From the sequence record NC_049948.1: a DNA stretch of 50,126 nt; one strand, given 5' to 3'. Shown in pieces: positions 15,775 to 50,126 of this stretch. The notes beneath the pieces are model-generated. The model worked only from the letters and a program-made list of their open reading frames with translations. It searched no databases and had not been told where the DNA came from. Source of the stretch: Escherichia phage ev017. A program made the position numbers and the translations under genes. Position 1 is the stretch's first letter; every line of letters begins with the position of its first letter.

Positions 15775-18700
15775 ATGGGTAAAGGCAGCAGTAAGGGGCA
15801 TACCCCGCGCGAAGCGAAGGACAACCTGAAATCATCCCAGATGCTGAGCGTGATAGACGCCATCAGCGAAGGGCCGGTTGAAGGTCCGGTGGATGGATTA
15901 AAAAGCGTGCTGCTGAACAGTACGCCGGTGCTGGACAGTGAGGGGAATACCAATATATTCGGCGTCACGGTGGTGTTCCGGGCCGGTGAGCAGGAGCAGA
16001 CACCGCCGGAGGGATTTGAATCCTCCGGCTCCGAGACGGTGCTCGGTACAGAAGTGAAATATGACACGCCGATCACCCGGACCATCACGTCGGCAAACAT
16101 TGACCGTCTGCGTTTTACTTTCGGCGTGCAGGCACTGGTGGAAACCACCTCAAAGGGGGACAGGAATCCATCGGAAGTCCGCCTGCTGGTTCAGATTCAA
16201 CGTAACGGTGGCTGGGTGACGGAAAAAGACATCACCATTAAGGGCAAAACCACGTCGCAGTATCTGGCCTCGGTGGTGGTGGATAACCTGCCGCCGCGCC
16301 CGTTTAATATCCGGATGCGCAGGATGACGCCGGACAGCACCACAGACCAGTTGCAGAACAAAACGCTCTGGTCGTCATACACCGAAATCATCGATGTGAA
16401 ACAGTGCTACCCGAACACGGCACTGGTCGGCGTACAGGTGGACTCGGAGCAGTTCGGCAGCCAGCAGGTGAGCCGTAATTATCATCTTCGCGGGCGCATT
16501 CTGCAGGTGCCGTCGAACTATAACCCGCAGACGCGGCAATACAGCGGTATCTGGGACGGAACGTTTAAGCCAGCATACAGCAACAACATGGCCTGGTGTC
16601 TGTGGGATATGCTGACCCATCCGCGCTACGGCATGGGGAAACGTCTTGGTGCGGCAGATGTGGATAAATGGGCGCTGTATGTCATCGGCCAGAATTGCGA
16701 CCAGTCAGTGCCGGACGGCTTTGGCGGCACGGAGCCGCGCATCACCTGTAATGCGTACCTGACCACACAGCGCAAGGCGTGGGATGTGCTCAGTGATTTT
16801 TGCTCGGCGATGCGCTGTATGCCGGTATGGAACGGGCAGACGCTGACATTCGTGCAGGACCGACCGTCGGATAAGGTGTGGACCTATAACCGCAGTAATG
16901 TGGTGATGCCGGATGATGGCGCGCCGTTCCGCTACAGCTTCAGCGCCCTGAAAGACCGCCATAATGCCGTTGAGGTGAACTGGATTGACCCGGATAACGG
17001 CTGGGAGACGGCGACAGAGCTTGTGGAGGACACGCAGGCCATTGCCCGTTACGGTCGTAACGTCACGAAGATGGATGCCTTTGGCTGTACCAGCCGGGGG
17101 CAGGCACACCGCGCCGGGCTGTGGCTGATTAAAACGGAGCTGCTGGAAACGCAGACCGTGGACTTCAGCGTGGGTGCAGAAGGGCTTCGCCATGTACCGG
17201 GCGATGTCATTGAAATCTGTGATGATGACTATGCGGGGATCAGCATCGGCGGGCGCGTGCTGGCGGTGAACAACCAGACGCGGACACTGACGCTCGACCG
17301 TGAAATCACGCTGCCATCCTCCGGCACCACGCTGATAAGCCTGGCTGACGGACAGGGGAATCCGGTCAGCGTGGAGGTCCAGTCCGTCACCGACGGCGTG
17401 AAGGTAAAAGTGAGCCGTGTTCCTGACGGCGTTGCAGAATACAGCGTGTGGGGGCTGAAGTTGCCAACGTTGCGCCAGCGCCTGTTCCGCTGTGTGAGTA
17501 TCCGTGAGAACGATGACGGCACGTATGCCATCACTGCCGTGCAGCATGTACCGGAAAAAGAGGCCATCGTGGATAACGGGGCGCACTTTGACGGCGACCA
17601 GAGCGGCACGGTGAATGGTGTCACGCCGCCAGCGGTGCAGCACCTGACTGCCGAAGTCACCGCAGACAGCGGGGAATATCAGGTGCTGGCGCGCTGGGAC
17701 ACGCCGAAGGTGGTGAAGGGGGTGAGCTTTATGCTTCGCCTGACCGTGGCAGCGGATGACGGCAGTGAGCGGCTGGTCAGCACGGCCCGGACGACGGAAA
17801 CCACATACCGCTTCAGGCAACTGGCGCTGGGGAACTACAGGCTGACAGTCCGGGCGGTAAATGCGTGGGGGCAGCAGGGCGATCCGGCATCGGTATCGTT
17901 CCGGATTGCCGCACCGGCAGCGCCGTCGCAGATTGAGCTGACACCGGGGTATTTTCAGATAACCGCCACGCCGCATCTTGCGGTTTATGATCCGACGGTA
18001 CAGTTTGAGTTCTGGTTCTCGGAAAAGCGGATTGCGGATATCAGGCAGGTTGAAACCACAGCACGCTATCTTGGCACGGCGCTGTACTGGATAGCCGCCA
18101 GTATCAATATCAAACCGGGCCATGATTATTATTTTTACATCCGCAGTGTGAACACCGTTGGCAAATCGGCATTTGTGGAGGCTGTTGGCCAGCCGAGTGA
18201 TGATGCATCCGGCTATCTGAATTTTTTCAAAGGAGAGATAGGGAAAACCCATCTGGCTCAGGAGTTGTGGACGCAGATTGATAACGGTCAGCTTGCGCCT
18301 GACCTGGCTGAAATCAGGACGTCCATTACGGGTGTCAGCAATGAAATCACGCAGACCGTCAATAAGAAACTGGAAGACCAGAGTGCAGCGATCCAGCAGA
18401 TACAGAAGGTTCAGGTTGATACAAATAATAACCTGAACAGCATGTGGGCTGTGAAGCTGCAGCAGATGCAGGACGGACGCCTTTATATCGCGGGTATTGG
18501 TGCCGGTGTTGAGAATACTCCTGACGGTATGCAGAGTCAGGTGCTGCTGGCGGCGGACAGGATTGCGATGATTAATCCTGCGAATGGCAACACAAAGCCG
18601 ATGTTTGTTGGGCAGGGCGATCAGATATTCATGAACGAAGTGTTCCTGAAATATCTGACGGCTCCCACCATTACCAGCGGTGGCAATCCCCCAACGTTTT

Positions 18701-19257
18701 CACTGACACCTGATGGTCGACTTTCTGCGAAAAATGCGGATATCAGCGGTAACGTGAACGCGAACTCCGGGACGCTCAACAACGTCACGATTAATCAGAA
18801 CTGTCGGATTCTGGGAAAACTGTCAGCTAACCAGATTGAAGGTGATATTGTCAAAACGGTGGGAAAAGCCTTTCCGAGAAATGGCAGTTATGCCAGCGGT
18901 ACAATAACGGTCACTGTGTACGATGACCAGGCTTTTGACCGTCAGATAGTAGTCCCCCCCGTTCTGTTTCGTGGGGGTAAGCATGAAAACTTCAACAGCA
19001 ACAACCAACAGTCATACTGGTATTCAACCTGTAAGCTGCAGGTACTGAAGAACGGACAGGAAATCTTTCAGCAACCCGCGACGGATGTCAGCAGGGTATT
19101 TTCATCAGTCATTGATATGCCTGCCGGACACGGCCATGTCACCCTGACTTTCAATGTTTCTTCATATGGTGCTAATAACTGGACGCCAACGACCAGTATC
19201 AGCGACCTTCTTGTTGTTGTGATGAAGAAATCTACAGCCGGTATCAGTATCAGTTGA
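15775..19257 (+). CDS. J: Tip attachment / central tail fibre protein J (host specificity)
   Basis: 1160-aa ORF; N-terminal ~800 aa collinear with lambda gpJ, C-terminal receptor-binding region appears divergent. Confidence 0.93.
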
Positions 19258-22048: not shown

Positions 22049-22906
22049 CTAATTGGGTGATAACAGATCCTGTGTATGGGAGTTTCCCTTTTTGCGTGCG
22101 TTGATGCTGGTAACGGCAAACGTCATGATGAACAAAACCGCGAATAAGACGACAATCGTCGGAGCTGGTGCGCTGTCGATAAAAAAGGACAACCAGACAC
22201 CAGTCATTGACACTATTACCGATATGCCAGTCGCCAGTAGGAGCGCAATATGAAAGCGTTGTGTCAGGAGTACCGCAATGGCGCCAGGCGCAATGAGCAG
22301 AGAAATGGAGAGAATGATACCTACCGCTTTCAGCGTCGCCACAATGGTCAGAGAGACCATGCACAGCAGCCCATAATGCAGCCATCTCGTATGCAAACCG
22401 CTTACCTGCGCCTGTTGATAATCAAAGCTGAACAGCAAAAAATCCCGCCATTTTACGCTAATAACAAGTGTAACCAGCCCGGCAATAATCATCGTCTGGA
22501 TTATATCGCCGATGGTTATCCCGAGCATGTCGCCGAAAAGAATATGGTCAAGATGTACGTCTGGTTTGACTGCAATATACAAGATCAGACCTGCGGCAAA
22601 CATGCCAGAAAAAACAATCCCCATCACTGTATCTTGCTTGATTCGGCTGTTGTCTTTCAGGTATCCCGTCGCCACCGCGCAGAATACTCCGGCGACGAAT
22701 GCCCCTGTAGCCAAAGGTAACCCCAGAATCCAGGCAAGCACGATTCCAGGAAAAACCGCATGACTCATCGCGTCACCCATCAGTGCCCAACCTTTCAGGA
22801 CCAGAAAGACCGACAGCAGCGCACAGGGTATGGAAACTACCAGTGAAATCAGCAGTGCGTGACTCATAAAGGTGAACTGCAGTGGCTCCAGTAATAATGC
22901 CATCAT
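22049..22906 (-). CDS. sitD: Iron/manganese ABC transporter permease SitD
   Basis: 285-aa polytopic membrane protein typical of the ABC-3 permease family; last gene of a 4-gene operon. Confidence 0.88.
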   Translation of the reverse strand: MMALLLEPLQFTFMSHALLISLVVSIPCALLSVFLVLKGWALMGDAMSHAVFPGIVLAWILGLPLATGAFVAGVFCAVATGYLKDNSRIKQDTVMGIVFSGMFAAGLILYIAVKPDVHLDHILFGDMLGITIGDIIQTMIIAGLVTLVISVKWRDFLLFSFDYQQAQVSGLHTRWLHYGLLCMVSLTIVATLKAVGIILSISLLIAPGAIAVLLTQRFHIALLLATGISVIVSMTGVWLSFFIDSAPAPTIVVLFAVLFIMTFAVTSINARKKGNSHTQDLLSPN

Positions 22907-23760
22907 GAGCGATCCTCCAGCGCCTTATGCGCACGCCGACGATTTGCCAAAAGCCCATGGGTGGGCGCAAAGACAAATGCTAAAAGAAACAGCAGTGTCT
23001 GCGCCACCACGATGATTCCACCTGTCGCGCCGTCCAGAAAGTAACTGACCCACGCGCCGAGGAAACTAGTTACACTGCCAATAGTTACAGCAATCATGAG
23101 CAGGCGGGGAAAACGATCGGTTAACAACCATGCTGTTGCACCGGGAGTCACCACCAGACAGATCACCAGAAAGGCACCAACCGTTTGCAGCGCCGCAACG
23201 GTCGAAACCGACAGCAGGGTGAAGAAGATGAGTTTTAATCTGCCCGGATGCAATCCAATAGCACGGGCGTGATTCTCGTCGAAAAAGGTCACCATAAGAT
23301 CTTTCCATTTGAAAAAAAGCACGATGATCGAGAGAATGCCAATGATAGTGAGTTGCAGGATATCCGCCGGATCGATTGCCAGAATATTGCCCAGGACGAT
23401 GGTCTGAATGTTCACAGATGTCGGGTTCAATGACACCATAAACAGCCCCAGGCCAAAAAAGGACGAGAAGATCAGACCGATGATGGCATCTTCTTTTAAG
23501 CGGGTGCGTTGGTTAAGAAACAGCATGCTGCCCGCAGCCAGTCCGCCGGAAAAGAAGGCTCCCAGAGAAAACGGAAGCCCCAGCATATATGCCCCCGCAA
23601 CACCCGGGACAATAGAGTGCGACAACGCATCGCCAATCAGCGACCAGCCTTTTAGCATCAGATAGCATGACAGGAAAGCGCAGAGACCGCCGACCATCGC
23701 CGAGACCCACATCGCATTGAGCATATATTCATAGCTGAAGGGTTCCAGTAGCACGTTCAT
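22903..23760 (-). CDS. sitC: Iron/manganese ABC transporter permease SitC
   Basis: 285-aa ABC-3 family permease, translationally coupled to sitB and sitD. Confidence 0.88.
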
Positions 23761-24584
23761 CTTTCTTCCCTCTGCACCGCTGACGGTCGATGAGCCACAA
23801 AAGGGCGTTCATCGTCAGTAATAATGCTTTCTTCCGAGCCGTTAAGTGTGACATGGCGCAGTACGCCGCTAAAAGCCAGCTCTAGGTTCTCGGCTGTAAA
23901 AGTGGTGTCTGTCGGCCCGCTTGCCAGGACGGTGCCTTTGACCATGACCGTATAATCGCAAAATGTCGTGACGGATCCGAGATTGTGTGTTGAGACAAGC
24001 ATCGTTTTGCCTTCCGCGCGTAACTCCCTCAACAGGCTGATGATTTTGGCTTCGGTTTTCACATCAACGCCAGTAAAAGGTTCATCCAGCAGGATCACAT
24101 CACCCTGCTGTGCAATCGCTCTCGCCAGAAAGACGCGTTTCTTTTGTCCACCGGAAAGCTCGCCGATTTGTCGATGGCGAAAATTCACCATATCGACACG
24201 TTCCAGCGCATCGGTGACAATTTGACGATCCCTCTTTTTGGCGATACGCAACATACCCATATGCCCATAGCGGCCCATCATCACCACATCTTCCACCAGT
24301 ACAGGAAATGACCAGTCAACATCTTCTGACTGAGGGACGTAGGCAACCAGGTTTTTCTGTAACGCCTGTCGCGTGGGAATACCCAGAACAGATATCTTTC
24401 CGCTGGTCAGACGCACAAATCCCATAATCGCTTTAAACAACGTCGATTTTCCGGAACCGTTTACCCCAACCAGAGCGGCAATAGATCCACTTGGTACTGT
24501 GAAGGATGCATCGCGCAGTGCTGTGTGCCCGTTACGCCAGGTGACAGTAACATCATTAACGACAATGCCTGCAGATTGCATCAT
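23757..24584 (-). CDS. sitB: Iron/manganese ABC transporter ATP-binding protein SitB
   Basis: Walker [13 protein letters not shown] signature LSGGQKKR, Walker B ILLDEP. Confidence 0.92.
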
Positions 24585-25498
24585 TATTTCTCCCTTTTCC
24601 CAGCTTTAATTCCCTGTACCAGCGTACTGGTAGTAACCTTAAGAAGGTCGATATACGTCGGTACCGGGCCGTTTTCTGTGCTCAGGGAATCGACATAGAG
24701 CACACCGCCGTAGTGTGCGCCGGTTTCACGCGCAACCTGACGCGCTGGTTTATCGGAAATCGTACTCTCGCTAAAGACTGCCGGGATATGATTTTTCTTA
24801 ACTATATCAACAACCTTACGTACCTGCTGCGGTGTTCCTTGTTGATCGGCATTAATCGGCCACAGATAAAGCTCTTTTAGCCCCAAATCGCGTGCGAGAT
24901 AAGAAAAAGCCCCTTCACTGGTGACCATCCATCGCTGATTCTCAGGGAGTTCCGTAATCTGCTTACGCAGGGGGGCAAGGGTTTGGGTAATCTTGGCTTT
25001 ATAAGTATCGGCATTGCGTTGGTAGGTTTGTGCATTTGCCGGATCGTATTTTATCAACGCATCACGAATATTATCGACGTAAATCAGAGCATTATCTGGC
25101 GACATCCATGCATGGGGGTTAGGTTTGCCCTCATAGGGTCCTTCGGTGATCCCTACAGGCGTCACACCCGAAGAGACAATTACTTCTGGAACCCCATTGA
25201 GATGCTGGTAAAAGCGTTGGAACCACAATTCCAGATTCATACCATTGGCGAGAATCAGTTGTGCCCCCTGCGCACGTTTAATATCGCCAGGGGTAGGCTG
25301 ATACTCATGAATTTCTGCACCAGGCTTGGTTATGGATGAGACTTCTGCAGCATCTCCCGCCACGTTTTTGGCCATATCCGCGATGATGGTAAATGTTGTA
25401 ATGACCTTGAATTTTTCAGTTGCACTTGCCTGAAATGCGATCGAGCAGGTGAGTGCGAGGCCCCCCAAGAGCATGGTTACTTTTTTTATCGAGTGCAT
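24584..25498 (-). CDS. sitA: Periplasmic metal-binding protein SitA
   Basis: 304 aa with N-terminal signal peptide; cluster-9 metal-binding lipoprotein-like; first gene of operon. Confidence 0.88.
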
Positions 25499-43917: not shown

Positions 43918-44104
43918 CCCATCTCAATCCCTTCAATACCTGAAAGAAAGCATAGAGCGGGCTTCAATGTGCACAGAGTGGATTCTATCTAGGTTTAGCG
44001 CATACAGAAGATTGCCGGTAAAGGGCATGCCAAGCAAGTCGATGCTGCATATGCAAAAGAATGCGCGCTGGAAGGTATGGCGAGAACACAGGTTATGTGG
44101 CTGA
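43910..44104 (+). CDS. ninF: NinF-like protein (N-terminus lambda-like, remainder divergent)
   Basis: [16 protein letters not shown] matches the lambda NinF N-terminus; the rest lacks the Cys-rich motif. Confidence 0.5.
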
Positions 44105-44123
44105 AAGAGGGGGTTATTAAGGC

Positions 44124-44486
44124 GTGAATACCTACAGCATCACATTACCCTGGCCTCCGAGCAATAATCGCTATTACCGCCATAATCGCGGGCGCACGCA
44201 CGTCAGCGCAGAGGGGCAGGCATACCGCGATAACGTCGCCCGAATCATTAAAAACGCAATGCTGGATATCGGCCTGGCTATGCCTGTGAAAATCCGCATT
44301 GAGTGCCACATGCCGGATCGCCGTCGCCGTGACCTGGATAATCTGCAAAAAGCCGCTTTTGACGCACTCACTAAAGCAGGTTTCTGGCTGGATGATGCTC
44401 AGGTCGTTGATTACCGCGTTGTGAAGATGCCTGTTACCAAAGGTGGGAGGCTGGAACTGACCATCACCGAAATGGGGAATGAATGA
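44124..44486 (+). CDS. rusA: Holliday junction resolvase RusA
   Basis: 120-aa [21 protein letters not shown]... matching E. coli prophage RusA. Confidence 0.92.
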
Positions 44487-44623
44487 TGTTTGAGTTTAAT
44501 ATGGCAGAACTTCTTCGCCACCGCTGGGGGCGTCTGCGCTTATATCGTTTCCTCGGTTCTGTTTTGACCGATTACCGAATACTGAAGAATTACGCCAAAA
44601 CCCTGACAGGAACAGGAGTATGA
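44483..44623 (+). CDS. ylcG: YlcG-like small protein
   Basis: 46-codon [26 protein letters not shown]... overlapping the rusA stop; same position as ylcG in DLP12; below ORF-track cutoff. Confidence 0.55.
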
Positions 44624-44708
44624 AGTCAGAGATAACAATCAACTAATACTGTTTTGTTGATTTTTGCTTGTAATTGGCGTTCTGGTCTGATTTTTGTGGA
44701 GTAAGTTG

Positions 44709-45092
44709 ATGCGTGATATTCAGATGGTTCTTGAGCGTTGGGGTGCGTGGGCGGCTAATAATCATGAAGATGTGACCTGGTCGTCCATTGCCGCCGGTTT
44801 TAAGGGATTAATTCCTTCAAAAGTAAAATCTCGCCCGCAATGTTGTGACGATGACGCGATGATCATTTGCGGGTGCATGGCCCGTCTGAAAAAGAACAAC
44901 AGCGATTTACACGATTTATTAGTAGATTATTATGTATGTGGTATGACATTCATGTCACTGGCAAGTAAGCATTGCTGCTCGGATGGTTATATCGGGAAAA
45001 GGTTACAGAAGGCTGAGGGCATAATTGAAGGGATGTTAATGGCATTAGATATCCGGTTAGATATGGATATCGTTGCTAATAATTCTAATTGA
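44709..45092 (+). CDS. Q: Late-gene antiterminator Q (QuuD/phage-82-type)
   Basis: ORF 44694-45092; Met at 44709; 127 aa, Cys-rich; immediately upstream of late promoter region and lysis genes. Confidence 0.75.
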
Positions 45093-45233
45093 TATGCAAT
45101 TGTTTACTAAAAGTTATTAAAAATGGGGCGTGGAAACGCCCCCAAAATAAAGGGTAATATATAACAGAAGGTTTATATAGTAAGAAGCAAGGTAGTGCTT
45201 CTAAAGGAAGTGGCTTGAGGGCTCCACTTATAT

Positions 45234-45270
45234 GTTGCGGAGGCAAAGCCTCCCGCAACATATCTTTTTC
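45234..45270 (+). terminator. tR'-like rho-independent terminator downstream of Q (PR'/qut region 45093-45233)
   Basis: GTTGCGGAGGC-AAAG-CCTCCCGCAAC hairpin followed by a T-run; a second hairpin GGGGCGTGGAAACGCCCC at about 45124. Confidence 0.6.
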
Positions 45271-45280
45271 GTAAGTCAGA

Positions 45281-46363
45281 TTAGAACTGATAAACCAGAC
45301 CTACAGCGACGATGTCGTCGGTATCAATACCAGCTGTTTTGGTAAACTTACTATCGTCAATTAAGTTGATTTTGTAATCAACAAAAGTGGACATGTTTTT
45401 ATTAAAGTAGTAAGTAGCACCGACATCGACATACTTGACTAAGTCTCGGTCACCATGAACACCAAGGTCTTTACCTTTTGACTGAAGGTAAGCAACAGAT
45501 GGACGCAGACCGAAGTCAAACTGATATTGTGCTACTGCTTCAAAGTTTTGTGCTTTGTTTGCAATATGGTTATTACCAAAAACGGTCATATTCTGAGTTT
45601 CAGAATATGTGGTAGCCAGATAGATATTGTTCGCATCATATTTCAGGCCTGCAGCCCATACTTCCGCATTTTTGCCGGAGGCATTGAATTTGCTCTTACC
45701 ATAGGCGACCTGACCGTCAGTGCGATCTGATTTAGCATAGGTTGCACCCACGCCGAATCCTTCATACTCATAAGTAGTGGAGAAACCGAAACCATCACCA
45801 TTGGCTTCAGTTACGTCAGTGCGGTCATTTTTACCCTGATACTGAGCAGCAAAGTTCAGGCCATCGACCAGACCAAAGAAGTCGTTGTTACGATAAGTTG
45901 CAACACCAGTAGTGCGACCAGTCATGAACACATCTGTTTGGGTCCAGGTATCACCACCGAATTCTGGCAGAACGTCAGTCCACGCACCGATGTCGTATGC
46001 TACACCGTAGTTACGGCCGTAATCGATTGAGCCGTAATCACCAAATTTCAGGCCTGCAAATGCAAGACGGGTTTTGTCTTTGGAAGAACCTTGAGATTCA
46101 GCACGGTTGCCTTTGAATTCATATTCCCACTGACCGAAACCAGTCAGTTGATCGTTGATTTGGGTTTCACCTTTGAAGCCAAGACGGGCATAAGTAGTAT
46201 CACCATCATCTGCATCATTAGAGGAGAAGTAGTGCTTGGCATTAACTTTCCCGTATAGATCCAGCTTGTTACTGTCTTTATTATAAATTTCAGCTGCCTG
46301 AGCAGACATCGCCATCAGTACTGATGCAGCTACAGCAGAAATTGCCACTGTTAATTTTTTCAT
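45281..46363 (-). CDS. Outer-membrane porin (OmpC/NmpC/Lc family), phage-borne
   Basis: ORF 45281-46423; from [23 protein letters not shown] signal peptide; general porin repeats; C-terminal VGLVYQF with terminal Phe. Confidence 0.9.
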
Positions 46364-46951
46364 TGTACGCCCTTTTTTTGAACTTTTATTAAAAAATGAT
46401 GTCACTGCGCGATAAATATTCATCTAATCAATGTGATTATTTCAAGATGTAAGTTTTAGTTTCTCATTTAATTTGTGAAGTAGATCTCTATTTTTATCTG
46501 AACCTTTTCTATCTAATCCTATTCATGGCTCTTGTCTGAACAAAAATAAATCTATTAGCTAATTTATATTAATGGCACTTATTTATAAGTGCTCTATAAT
46601 TCTTTAGCTTAATTTAAACAAACTAAAAATAACATCGGAAATTATTAACTGGTTATTTGTTGAAGTTTTCTTATGCATTTGTGGTGGTGTTTTGAACACT
46701 CGGTGGCATTCTCACAAATATCATTTAGTAGTTTACGTACGTAAAAAATTGGTTATGCTGTTAAGAGTGGTTACTTCGTCACACAGCTTAAACCCGCCGT
46801 CGAGCGGGTTTTTCCATTTTTTGAGTCTCGATATTAGCTGATAACCCAATACCTGAGTTATTCACTGACTCCGAATCTGTTACGTTTCTGCCTTTATTGC
46901 GATACGTAGTATCCCCTTAATTTACACCCGCTTTGTCTGCGAGGTGGGGTT

Positions 46952-47167
46952 ATGAAATCCATGGATAAGTTAACAACGGGTGTCGCCTATGGTACCTCAG
47001 CAGGTAGTGCCGGGTACTGGTTTTTACAGTTGCTCGATAAAGTCACGCCCTCACAGTGGGCGGCAATAGGTGTGCTGGGTAGCCTGGTATTTGGCCTGCT
47101 GACGTACCTGACAAACCTTTATTTCAAGATTAAAGAAGATAAGCGCAAGGCTGCGAGAGGTGAATAA
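46952..47167 (+). CDS. S: Pinholin (S21-type holin)
   Basis: 71-aa two-TMD protein [26 protein letters not shown]... matching phage 21 S. Confidence 0.88.
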
Positions 47168-47664
47168 TGCCTCCATCATTACGAAAAGCCGTTGCTGCTG
47201 CTATTGGTGGCGGAGCAATTGCTATAGCATCAGTGTTAATCACTGGCCCAAGTGGTAACGATGGTCTGGAAGGTGTCAGCTACATACCATACAAAGATAT
47301 TGTTGGTGTATGGACTGTATGTCACGGGCATACAGGAAAAGACATCATGCTCGGTAAAACGTATACCAAAGCAGAATGCAAAGCCCTCCTGAATAAAGAC
47401 CTTGCCACGGTCGCCAGACAAATTAACCCGTACATCAAAGTCGATATACCGGAAACAATGCGCGGCGCTCTTTACTCATTCGTTTACAACGTGGGTGCTG
47501 GCAATTTCAGAACATCGACGCTTCTTCGCAAAATAAACCAGGGCGATATCAAAGGCGCATGTGATCAGCTACGTCGCTGGACATATGCTGGCGGTAAGCA
47601 ATGGAAAGGTCTCATGACTCGTCGTGAGATTGAGCGTGAAATCTGTTTGTGGGGTCAGCAATGA
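47167..47664 (+). CDS. R: SAR endolysin (R21-type lysozyme)
   Basis: 165 aa; N-terminal Gly/Ala-rich signal-anchor-release domain followed by lysozyme-like domain. Confidence 0.88.
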
Positions 47665-48122
47665 ACAGAGTAACCGCGATTATCTCCGCTCTGGTTATCT
47701 GCATCATCGTCTGCCTGTCATGGGCTGTTAATCATTACCGTGATAACGCCATTACCTACAAAGCCCAGCGCGACAAAAATGCCAGAGAACTGACGCTGGC
47801 GAACGCGGCAATTACTGACATACAGATGCGTCAGCGTGATGTTGCTGCGCTCGATGCAAAATACACGAAGGAGTTAGCTGATGCGAAAGCTGAAAATGAT
47901 GCTCTGCGTGATGATGTTGCCGCTGGTCGTCGTCGGTTGCACATCAAAGCAGTCTGTCAGTCAGTGCGTGAAGCCACCACCGCCTCCAGCGTGGATAATG
48001 CAGCCTCCCCCCGACTGGCAGACACCGCTGAACGGGATTATTTCACCCTCAGAGAGAGGCTGATCACTATGCAAAAACAACTGGAAGGAACCCAGAAGTA
48101 TATTAATGAGCAGTGCAGATAG
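47649..48122 (+). CDS. Rz: Spanin inner-membrane subunit Rz
   Basis: 157 aa; N-terminal TMD and coiled-coil; overlaps endolysin stop. Confidence 0.85.
47881..48063 (+). CDS. Rz1: Spanin outer-membrane lipoprotein subunit Rz1 (embedded in Rz, +1 frame)
   Basis: 60 aa; lipobox LPLVVVGC; Pro-rich; entirely within Rz. Confidence 0.85.
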
Positions 48123-48153: not shown

Positions 48154-48447
48154 TTATTGTGAGCAATACACACGCTCTTCCAGCGGAGTATAAATGCCTA
48201 AAGTAATAAAACCGAGCAATCCATTTACGAATGTTTGCTGGGTTTCTGTTTTAACAACATTTTCTGCACCACCACAAATTTTTGCTGCATCGACAGTTTT
48301 CTTCTGCCCAATTCCCGAAACGAAGAAATGATGGGTGATGGTTTCCTTTGGTGTTACTGCTGTAGGTTTGTTTCCAACAGTAAACGTCTGTTGAGCACAT
48401 CCTGTAATAAGCATTGCCAGAGCGGCAGAAAACAACATTTTTTTCAT
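48154..48447 (-). CDS. bor: Bor-like lipoprotein (serum resistance)
   Basis: ORF 48154-48495; from MKKMLFSAALAMLITGCAQQTFTV... matching lambda Bor. Confidence 0.88.
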   Translation of the reverse strand: MKKMLFSAALAMLITGCAQQTFTVGNKPTAVTPKETITHHFFVSGIGQKKTVDAAKICGGAENVVKTETQQTFVNGLLGFITLGIYTPLEERVYCSQ

Positions 48448-48927
48448 CTTATTATCCTGCATTGTTAAAAACGGCAGAATCCTATGTGACAACAATTAAA
48501 CGATAGTTAAATGGATTGATGAAAATTAAAACTACACAGGTGGGCTCAGACTATTGGAGGAAGTTGGGGACACTCAGAATCCTGTGGAATGAAATAAACC
48601 GGTCTATCCGTCCATTACCCTTTTAGCTGCGCTGTATCGTCGCCGTATTCCCGCATTAACCATGACCGTAGCCCGACGGGGAATTCCTTCTGCGTGAGTG
48701 TGCGGGAATAATTAAAAACGATGCACACCGGGTTTTTACCGCGTTAATGATTCGCGGGTTTATCCCGGTGCGATGGTGGAAGAAACAGGAAGCTGTATTA
48801 CAGAAAGTGCTACTACTGTATCCCGATGCGATGTATGTAATGTGAGTCAGATAATGGCACAGGATGTGGTGATGTGGCAGTCTGGAACACAGGATATATT
48901 GTCAGAATAAGACCCGTAGGAATAAAA

Positions 48928-49254
48928 ATGAAAAGACGCCTTTTACTACTTTTTCTGTTATCTGTCCTGGCAGTGGGATGCTCGCAGCAAAAAGCTGATG
49001 AGCCCCGGCAATTAGTGACGGTGTATCCACGATATCCGGAATATGCTGCAGCAAATTATATCAAGGGGCTGGTTGAGGTTAAGTTCGATATTGGTGCTGA
49101 TGGGACTGTGACACGGATCGTTTTTCTCCGCTCAGAGCCTCATAATTTGTTTCGTGATGAAGTGGTGAAGGCCATGGCGAAATGGCGATTTGAAAAGAAT
49201 CGCCCCTGTCAGGGAGTGAAGAGACAATTTATCTTTACGCCGTCACGTCCTTGA
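48928..49254 (+). CDS. Putative lipoprotein with TonB C-terminal-like domain
   Basis: ORF 48874-49254; from MKRRLLLLFLLSVLAVGCS lipobox; YPRYPEYAAANYIKGLVEVKFDIGADGTV resembles a TonB-C fold motif. Confidence 0.55.
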   Translation: MKRRLLLLFLLSVLAVGCSQQKADEPRQLVTVYPRYPEYAAANYIKGLVEVKFDIGADGTVTRIVFLRSEPHNLFRDEVVKAMAKWRFEKNRPCQGVKRQFIFTPSRP

Positions 49255-49730: not shown

Positions 49731-49869
49731 AAAAATGTCCGATAATTTTACTTTCTACCGCAGTTAGTTGATTCGTTGGTCCTGGTAGCACATTGGGCGA
49801 GGATTTAAATGCCAGGCAACTGAAGGATGATGTCGCAAGGGAGATAGCGAGAATATTTCTGATTTTCAT
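49618..49869 (-). CDS. Hypothetical secreted small protein
   Basis: ORF 49618-49938; Met at 49869 starts a signal-peptide-like MKIRNILAISLATSSFSCLA; overlaps ORF 49377-49730 in another frame. Confidence 0.35.
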   Translation of the reverse strand: MKIRNILAISLATSSFSCLAFKSSPNVLPGPTNQLTAVESKIIGHFYAPHSTLPGTTITGTCDASPVPGCTCPFCTMLRSQNR

Positions 49870-50019
49870 TTGATGATGCCTCTGTGTGAAATGACGGTAA
49901 ACGACGCACTTGTGCCGGCACATAATAGCAAGCACCATAATAGATCAGATTCGATTCTTGCTGTAAGTGATAATTATTCTCGTTTTCGGGTCCTTTCCGT
50001 CGATCCAACAGGTTACGGG

Positions 50020-50126
50020 TGTCTCTTATACACATCTGACGCTGCCGACGAATAGAGAGGTGTAGATCTTCGTGGTACCCGTCTCGTTAAAAAAAAAAAC
50101 TAAGACGTGGTACCATATTAGAGTTA
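50020..50126. other. Non-biological Illumina Nextera adapter (mosaic end TGTCTCTTATACACATCTGACGCTGCCGACGA, index ATAGAGAG, degenerate P5, poly-A)
   Basis: Adapter strings read directly; preceded by ...GATCCAACAGGTTACGGG resembling the lambda right end. Confidence 0.92.

Follow-up and report, generated by a model that had tools for sequence, protein, structure and literature searches.

An intact NmpC/Lc-type porin gene with an IpeX-like 3' untranslated region between Q and the lysis genes of Escherichia phage ev017

The window analysed was the whole 50,126-nucleotide stretch of Escherichia phage ev017 (NC_049948.1). A porin gene was located on the minus strand between the antiterminator gene Q and the holin gene, as the first-pass annotation had recognised. 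The left neighbours of the porin were RusA, YlcG and Q, and the right neighbours were a P21-type holin, a lysozyme, Rz/Rz1 and Bor/Iss. The coding features on which the analysis relied were the following:

44709–45092, plus strand: Q antiterminator of the QuuD type, 127 amino acids (PF06530, E = 7.7e-54)
45281–46363, minus strand: porin CDS of the NmpC/Lc/"OmpD" type, 360 amino acids, with the start codon ATG at 46361–46363 and the stop codon TAA at 45281–45283
46295–46363, minus strand: signal peptide of 23 amino acids, cleaved before AEIYNKD, equal to the 69-nt sig_peptide of the PA-2 lc record
46952–48122, plus strand: lysis cassette with holin (46952–47167), lysozyme (47167–47664), Rz (47649–48122) and embedded Rz1 (47881–48063)

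The lysis genes matched the Pfam families Phage_holin_2_1, Phage_lysozyme and Phage_lysis, and carry the RefSeq names essD, rrrD and rzpD on the identical sequence of E. coli Nissle 1917. A 2.6-kb block (44600–47200) showed 100% identity to the Nissle 1917 chromosome and to phage PhiR57_1. Of 5426 complete E. coli genomes, 2393 contained the Q-porin-holin block (coverage of at least 80%), so that nearly half of sequenced E. coli, the probiotic Nissle 1917 included, possess the module. In the phage collection, the porin block was carried by 34 records. The tRNA scan of the window detected no tRNA genes, in contrast to the Q–S interval of the Stx phages. The porin gene of ev017 is unbroken, belongs to the NmpC/Lc type that has long been known from prophages and is followed by its IpeX tail, and in this respect it is already known; the biology of phage porins was established between the 1970s and 2006.

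The porin gene and its product

The longest open reading frame on the minus strand at the porin locus extended from 45281 to 46423 (380 amino acids), and a second ATG at 46363 gave a protein of 360 amino acids. The RefSeq protein WP_000737271.1 (360 amino acids), annotated on the identical Nissle 1917 sequence, has the coordinates of this shorter form. By this comparison the true start is at 46363, and the ATG at 46423 is merely the start of the longest open reading frame. The candidate promoter described below (46445–46416) also places the ATG at 46423 upstream of the likely transcription start of the porin. The porin gene first noticed within 45093–46423 was real, with its CDS at 45281–46363.

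The protein aligned with the Pfam family Porin_1 (PF00267) over the full profile (positions 1–337 of 337, E = 1.9e-151) and reached 521 bits against the NCBIfam OmpC subfamily (cut-off 484), in agreement with its initial description as a full porin of the OmpC/NmpC/Lc family that has a signal peptide and ends in phenylalanine (the last residues are VGLVYQF). The alignment to NmpC and Lc suggested at that stage was performed, the K-12 NmpC sequence being taken with IS5 removed, and the amino acid identity was 91.9% to PA-2 Lc and equally to K-12 NmpC. Identity was approximately 79% to proteins named OmpD, 66% to OmpC and 62% to OmpF. The closest solved structures were OmpC chains (PDB), with alignments that began at residue 24 and reached the C-terminus. 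When the sequence was compared with K-12 OmpC and OmpF, it was seen that K16, R37, the arginine of TR(L)AF, the PEFGGD motif of L3 and the C-terminal YQF were all retained. An AlphaFold model of moderate confidence (pLDDT 62) displayed 16 strands and TM scores of 0.80–0.87 against OmpC and OmpK36. By alignment and model alike, the barrel is undisrupted and the eyelet residues are present. The protein is predicted to be a 16-stranded, general-diffusion porin of the outer-membrane type.

Between the ev017 porin and Lc or NmpC, 27–29 of the 34 amino acid differences were located in the predicted surface loops L4–L8, which represent 30% of the residues; in the case of NmpC, almost all of the differences fell there, two short deletions among them. 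Such a concentration in loops fits a surface-exposed porin under selection. In DNA comparisons with DLP12 and PA-2, no segment of the block had diverged more than the porin CDS (87–88% identity, versus 95–99% for the flanks).

Control region, 3' untranslated region and terminators

The non-coding features on both sides of the porin were the following:

45115–45280, minus strand: 3' untranslated region (UTR) of the porin, homologue of the IpeX sRNA region (DNA homology to the DLP12 and PA-2 spacers)
45125–45142, minus strand: hairpin of the intrinsic terminator that ends the porin/IpeX transcript (terminator scan), with the U-tract encoded by 45115–45124
45230–45263, no strand assigned: long hairpin of 15 bp and one bulge (sequence and folds of both strands)
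46416–46445, minus strand: candidate porin promoter (permissive consensus scan), TTGAAA at 46445–46440, an 18-nt spacer and GAATAT at 46421–46416
46471–46491, no strand assigned: predicted CRP site ATTTGTGAAGTAGATCTCTAT upstream of the porin, identical at 21 of 21 positions to the site annotated in J02580
46492–46728, no strand assigned: AT-rich spacer (27–33% G+C) that separates the control region of the porin from the late promoter (composition)

The candidate porin promoter was conserved in DLP12 and PA-2. The AT-rich spacer beyond the CRP site was the least conserved non-coding segment (88–89% identity to DLP12 and PA-2), and the promoter scan placed a plus-strand promoter-like site at 46572–46600 inside it.

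On the other side of the gene, the 188-nt spacer between Q and the porin showed 95.2% identity over 187 of its 188 nt to the quuD-nmpC spacer of DLP12 and to the DNA downstream of lc in PA-2. The distance from the stop codon (45281–45283) to the U-tract of the minus-strand terminator (around 45115) was about 164–166 nt, and a length of 167 nt is published for the IpeX sRNA (PMC12197685). According to reviews, IpeX maps downstream of nmpC/lc and represses OmpC and OmpF (PMC12197685, PMC5069750, PMC3617542, PMC7177473). By homology, the spacer is the porin 3' UTR and a homologue of IpeX. Since Rfam has no IpeX family, the scan of 44000–48000 at E ≤ 1 gave no IpeX match, and the assignment was made by DNA homology. 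The IpeX-like RNA was predicted to be strongly structured (z = −6.0). Of 5426 E. coli genomes, 2501 contained the segment. Thirty-four records of the phage collection had the IpeX-like spacer, and every one of them also carried the porin module. No annotated feature lay under the segment among the 12 E. coli matches listed, nor did the feature tables of DLP12, Nissle and PhiR57_1 contain an RNA gene at this place. The correspondence of the Q-porin spacer to the known IpeX region had been overlooked in the first-pass annotation.

Reviews are divided on base pairing as the mode of action of IpeX, and a lack of simple complementarity has been reported (PMC3617542). Our duplex search between the IpeX-like RNA and the leaders of ompC and ompF was not significant (z of −1.8 and −0.8, respectively), and the whole-length duplexes returned by this prediction were not meaningful. 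Three other candidates were set aside. A Staphylococcus sRNA proposed by Rfam at the 45230 hairpin was a chance match far under the gathering score. A phage 434 record matching the IpeX region, which might have been an OmpC-using natural carrier, corresponded to "434B", a recombinant that received nmpC::IS5 from DLP12. The prophage sRNA svsR, which lowers LamB (PMC12803456), maps to the cI gene, outside the porin region.

Two hairpins, near 45124 and 45234, had been noticed initially and read as a possible tR' and a possible convergent terminator. Both exist. The one at 45125–45142 has a stem of 7 pairs, of which 6 are G-C, and the tail ATTTTTAATA on the minus strand (terminator scan). The position of its T-tract on that strand makes it the terminator of the porin/IpeX transcript and not tR'. 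The one at 45230–45263, which escaped the ungapped terminator scan, forms the first stem of the IpeX-like RNA, counted from its 5' end, and this location inside the UTR does not suit tR' either. It is directly followed on the plus strand by CTTTTT (45264–45269), so this hairpin and its T-run may halt rightward transcription that comes out of Q.

Position of the late promoter

Three features were placed between the AT-rich spacer and the holin gene:

46732–46759, plus strand: pR'-like late promoter with −35 TTTACG, a 16-nt spacer and −10 TATGCT, aligned with the annotated pR' of 933W and SC370
46766–46786: predicted second CRP site, identical at 21 of 21 positions to the other CRP site annotated in the PA-2 record
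46790–46825, plus strand: G+C-rich hairpin and T-run, candidate tR' (terminator scan)

The Q protein of ev017 was 81% identical to Q of the Stx phage 933W over residues 1–120 and diverged beyond. The full 127-amino-acid form was observed in 33 of 418 phage records with the ev017-type Q family, and its tail was restricted to porin-carrying phages. The 296 records at 80–90% Q identity (Stx phages and Lambda_ev203) aligned over residues 1–120 only, among the matches listed. By alignment with the Stx phages, the module has replaced the C-terminal codons of Q past residue 120.

The segment 46729–46825, which ends 127 nt before the holin start, was the only DNA in the window homologous to a mapped Q-dependent pR' (933W, SC370 and Sakai). 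The putative transcription start of its promoter is near 46766. The annotations of 933W and SC370 have pR' overlapping the last part of Q, with a G+C hairpin after it. In Sakai Sp5, a homologous TTTACG-16-TATCAT promoter was located exactly 258 nt upstream of the distal tR'. The transcription start of the Sakai pR' has been mapped, and the published distance from start to 3' end agrees with these 258 nt (PMC7547250). The hairpin at 46790–46825 corresponded by homology to the one that comes first after pR' in 933W, SC370 and Sakai, and it is taken as the candidate tR' because it is the only terminator-like site between the pR'-like promoter and the holin; no copy of the distal tR' of the Stx phages was found in the window. 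The consensus match of the pR'-like promoter was weak (7.5 of 12), no better than that of chance sites adjoining Q. As both candidate regions scored approximately 7.5 of 12 in the consensus scan, homology was used to place the late promoter. The predicted second CRP site overlaps the initial transcribed region of this promoter, and that region is also conserved in 933W. The conservation of the site may consequently reflect late-promoter function, not CRP.

A perfect 14-bp palindrome, TTTACGTACGTAAA, covered the −35 region at 46732–46745. It was present in a single copy in the window and was found in DLP12, Nissle, PhiR57_1, PA-2, 933W and SC370, the 933W counterpart being TTTACGATCGTAAA.

Relative to the Stx phages, the porin module (approximately 45069–46728) probably sits between Q and pR'. 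The promoter and hairpin (46732–46825) stand directly before the holin gene, so late transcription need not cross the porin gene, and it probably starts near 46766. This reverses the order first proposed, in which the porin lay between the late promoter/terminator region and the holin: the pR' homologue is downstream of the porin.

A different arrangement would have pR', qut and tR' directly after Q, with the 45125 and 45230 hairpins acting as tR' and the porin antisense inside the late unit, so that Q-modified polymerase would travel across 1.7 kb of antisense porin DNA to the holin. The late promoter does directly follow Q in lambda, 933W and SC370, weak plus-strand promoter-like sites exist at 45131–45181, and the CTTTTT after the 45230–45263 hairpin is on the appropriate strand. 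The related phage Lambda_ev203, also seen as prophage L004, has a Q with 87.5% identity to that of ev017 over residues 1–120, and in L004 a promoter-like and terminator segment immediately follows this gene. Against this, the standard promoter scan found no plus-strand promoter at threshold in the Q-porin spacer, the T-tract of the 45125–45142 hairpin is on the minus strand, and a comparison of 45060–45290 with the pR' homologue of 933W gave no similarity; nothing in 45093–45280 resembled the pR' DNA of phages that share this Q family, whereas 46729–46825 did. Moreover, the spacer was confined to the porin-module phages (34 of 34 records), while the pR'-like segment occurred in 358 phage records, against only 34 records with the porin. 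We consider a Q-adjacent late promoter unlikely. L004/Lambda_ev203 could not serve as an empty-site comparator; its cargo differs (blc, ybgA) and does not define the boundaries of the insertion. A more speculative idea, to which we give little credence, is that the module is wired into the lysis-lysogeny decision and is not passive cargo, with the palindrome at the −35 region of pR' possibly being a binding element of the Q family. The only plus-strand terminator-like element after Q lies inside IpeX, so the Q and porin/IpeX transcripts would be convergent with an overlap of about 150 nt. If this were true, porin/IpeX transcription in the lysogen could dampen leaky Q through antisense pairing or polymerase collision, and after induction antiterminated rightward transcription, antisense to IpeX and to the porin, would shut both off. 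The palindrome was absent from L004 despite its related Q, so it may not be the Q-binding element.

Proposed working of the module and known systems

The region very probably represents a classical porin module of lambdoid prophages, a "moron" that brings its own promoter and terminator and serves lysogenic conversion. The sequence analysis shows what the gene is and that it is intact, the homology of the 3' UTR, the CRP site and the late promoter, and the strand of the terminators. On the basis of homology or of published work we infer promoter activity, expression in the lysogen, repression of OmpC and OmpF and a biological pay-off, and we propose the following working. The order on the minus strand would be a CRP-dependent control region, the intact porin, the structured IpeX-like 3' UTR of about 165 nt and the terminator. 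In the lysogen, the module would be transcribed independently of the lytic programme, and the porin would enter the outer membrane as an additional general porin. The IpeX tail of the transcript would lower the synthesis of OmpC and OmpF post-transcriptionally. As a net result, the main host porins would be partly replaced by the phage porin and permeability would be altered; the replacement would also strip the receptors of OmpC- and OmpF-dependent phages and colicins. A phage-borne porin with such an anti-OmpC/OmpF RNA tail would alter both passage through the outer membrane and the docking of phages, colicins and antibodies.

It is conceivable, though unlikely, that the porin is an intact but silent passenger with no expression in the lysogen and no effect on the envelope, as for nmpC in K-12 and E. 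coli B. The K-12 gene is disrupted by IS5, intact nmpC-type genes are described as quiescent or unexpressed in many strains, E. coli B for example (PMC3333887), and the upstream region, with 27% G+C, is typical of DNA silenced by H-NS and might be silenced here. The reading frame, the signal peptide, the eyelet residues, the CRP site and the terminator are nevertheless intact and conserved, and the loop-centred differences fit an exposed protein under selection. NmpC peptides were detected in extracellular vesicles of Nissle 1917, which has the exact porin sequence of ev017 (PMC6598517). In CFT073 at 37 °C, both nmpC copies were strongly induced and ompC went down, at the RNA and protein levels (PMC12890032); this shift fits the IpeX model without proving it. 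The module might, on the other hand, mainly serve superinfection exclusion of ev017 itself, a role that has been put forward for PA-2, a phage reported to adsorb to OmpC, which is lost from its lysogens. The ev017 module is 92–95% identical to that of PA-2, and IpeX lowers OmpC (PMC5069750, PMC12197685). However, the last 250 residues of the ev017 tail-tip protein J were 100% identical to those of phage 21 J, and phage 21 natively uses LamB as its receptor, although a single J mutation confers the use of OmpC (PMC11336670). With a LamB-type tip, loss of OmpC would bar other phages, those dependent on OmpC or OmpF, rather than ev017, and self-exclusion as the main role appears improbable. The analysis brings three corrections to the annotation: the start codon of the porin, the IpeX region, unannotated in the records inspected, and the late promoter, which probably lies downstream of the porin and not next to Q.

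Among the closest known systems is the DLP12 (qsr') prophage of K-12, which shares with ev017 the order rusA, ylcG, quuD, a porin on the opposite strand (nmpC::IS5), essD, rrrD, rzpD and bor (borD). To the identities of 91.9% for the protein and 95.2% for the 3' UTR is added 99% for the pR'-like segment. In DLP12, nmpC is split by IS5 after codon 346, whereas the ev017 copy is unbroken and belongs to a complete phage genome of the inducible type, DLP12 being a remnant, cryptic prophage. The Lc porin (protein 2) of PA-2, the textbook case of porin lysogenic conversion, resembles that of ev017 in porin family, signal peptide, 3' UTR, CRP sites and adjacency to the lysis genes, and the PA-2 lc record of 1986 (GenBank J02580) has the same layout. 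Lc differs by 8% of its amino acids, in surface loops, and PA-2 is reported to use OmpC whereas ev017 has the phage-21-type, LamB-type J. The chromosomal porins OmpC, OmpF and PhoE of E. coli and OmpD of Salmonella have the fold and the pore-lining residues in common with the ev017 porin. They are under OmpR/EnvZ control with micF, whereas the ev017 porin is phage-borne, has its own CRP-linked region and, unlike them, possesses a 3' UTR predicted to act against host porins. Finally, the Stx phages (933W, Sakai Sp5/Sp15) share the Q family and have a pR' and first hairpin homologous to those of ev017, with stx as the cargo of the Q-to-holin interval. There, stx follows pR'/tR' in the same orientation and depends on Q, whereas the ev017 porin precedes pR', is encoded on the opposite strand and has a promoter and a terminator of its own.

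Adaptor sequence at the ends of the window

Illumina/Nextera adaptor was present at both termini of the window, so that the true phage insert extends approximately from position 91 to 50020. Two open reading frames reach into the right-hand adaptor and are artefacts at the adaptor end.

1-90, left-end adaptor: poly-T, P7 sequence, index TCGCCTTA and Nextera mosaic end, in this order
about 50021-50126, right-end adaptor: mosaic end, i5-side adaptor, index ATAGAGAG, a stretch of degraded adaptor and finally poly-A, in this order
49805-50035 (-), ORF reaching into the adaptor
49870-50055 (+), ORF reaching into the adaptor

Tail tip, second cargo block and other genes of ev017

Over its final 250 residues, the ev017 J protein shares 100% identity with the J protein of phage 21. 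The native receptor of phage 21 is LamB, and a single mutation in J allows phage 21 to use OmpC (PMC11336670). A second cargo block, flanked by the tail-fibre genes and the integrase, was visible on the minus strand, and its four genes constitute a SitABCD-type ABC metal-uptake system. Further to the right, a Bor/Iss lipoprotein gene is named iss by RefSeq on the identical sequence of E. coli Nissle 1917.

15775-19257 (+), J tail-tip protein gene
22049-25498 (-), SitABCD-type genes: ZnuA-like binding protein, ATPase and two ABC-3 permeases
48154-48450 (-), Bor/Iss serum-resistance lipoprotein gene, after Rz
48928-49254 (+), small ORF beyond the Bor/Iss gene, with a TonB C-terminal domain only

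Hairpin in the porin gene and palindrome at the pR'-like promoter

Within the porin coding sequence, the coding strand contained a terminator-like hairpin (45587-45609, minus strand) with a 10-bp stem and the tail ACCGTTTTTG, which is probably a chance match. A perfect 14-bp palindrome, TTTACGTACGTAAA, was observed at 46732-46745, overlapping the -35 element of the pR'-like promoter upstream of the holin gene. Its counterpart in the Stx phage 933W is TTTACGATCGTAAA, in which the two central bases are changed and the palindrome is kept. The palindrome, which may represent a protein-binding site, was not found in prophage L004, whose Q is closely related.

Cargo between Q and holin in other phages and prophages

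The phage 434 isolate "434B" (OL657227.1) carries a ylcG-Q-nmpC::IS5 segment derived from DLP12, the cryptic prophage of K-12, and the annotation of this record places the 434B/DLP12 crossover in ylcG. The porin module has therefore moved by recombination from a cryptic prophage to a live phage. The cargo is not the same everywhere. In prophage L004, for which the DNA itself was read, a closely related Q is followed by blc, on the opposite strand, and then by ybgA, and the related phage Lambda_ev203 shares this alternative arrangement. The Q-to-holin interval is a general hot spot for cargo. The terminator located directly after Q in L004 is similar to the StxS terminator, which is the distal tR' in the Sakai Stx phages (L004 3988-4140, L011 975-1005).
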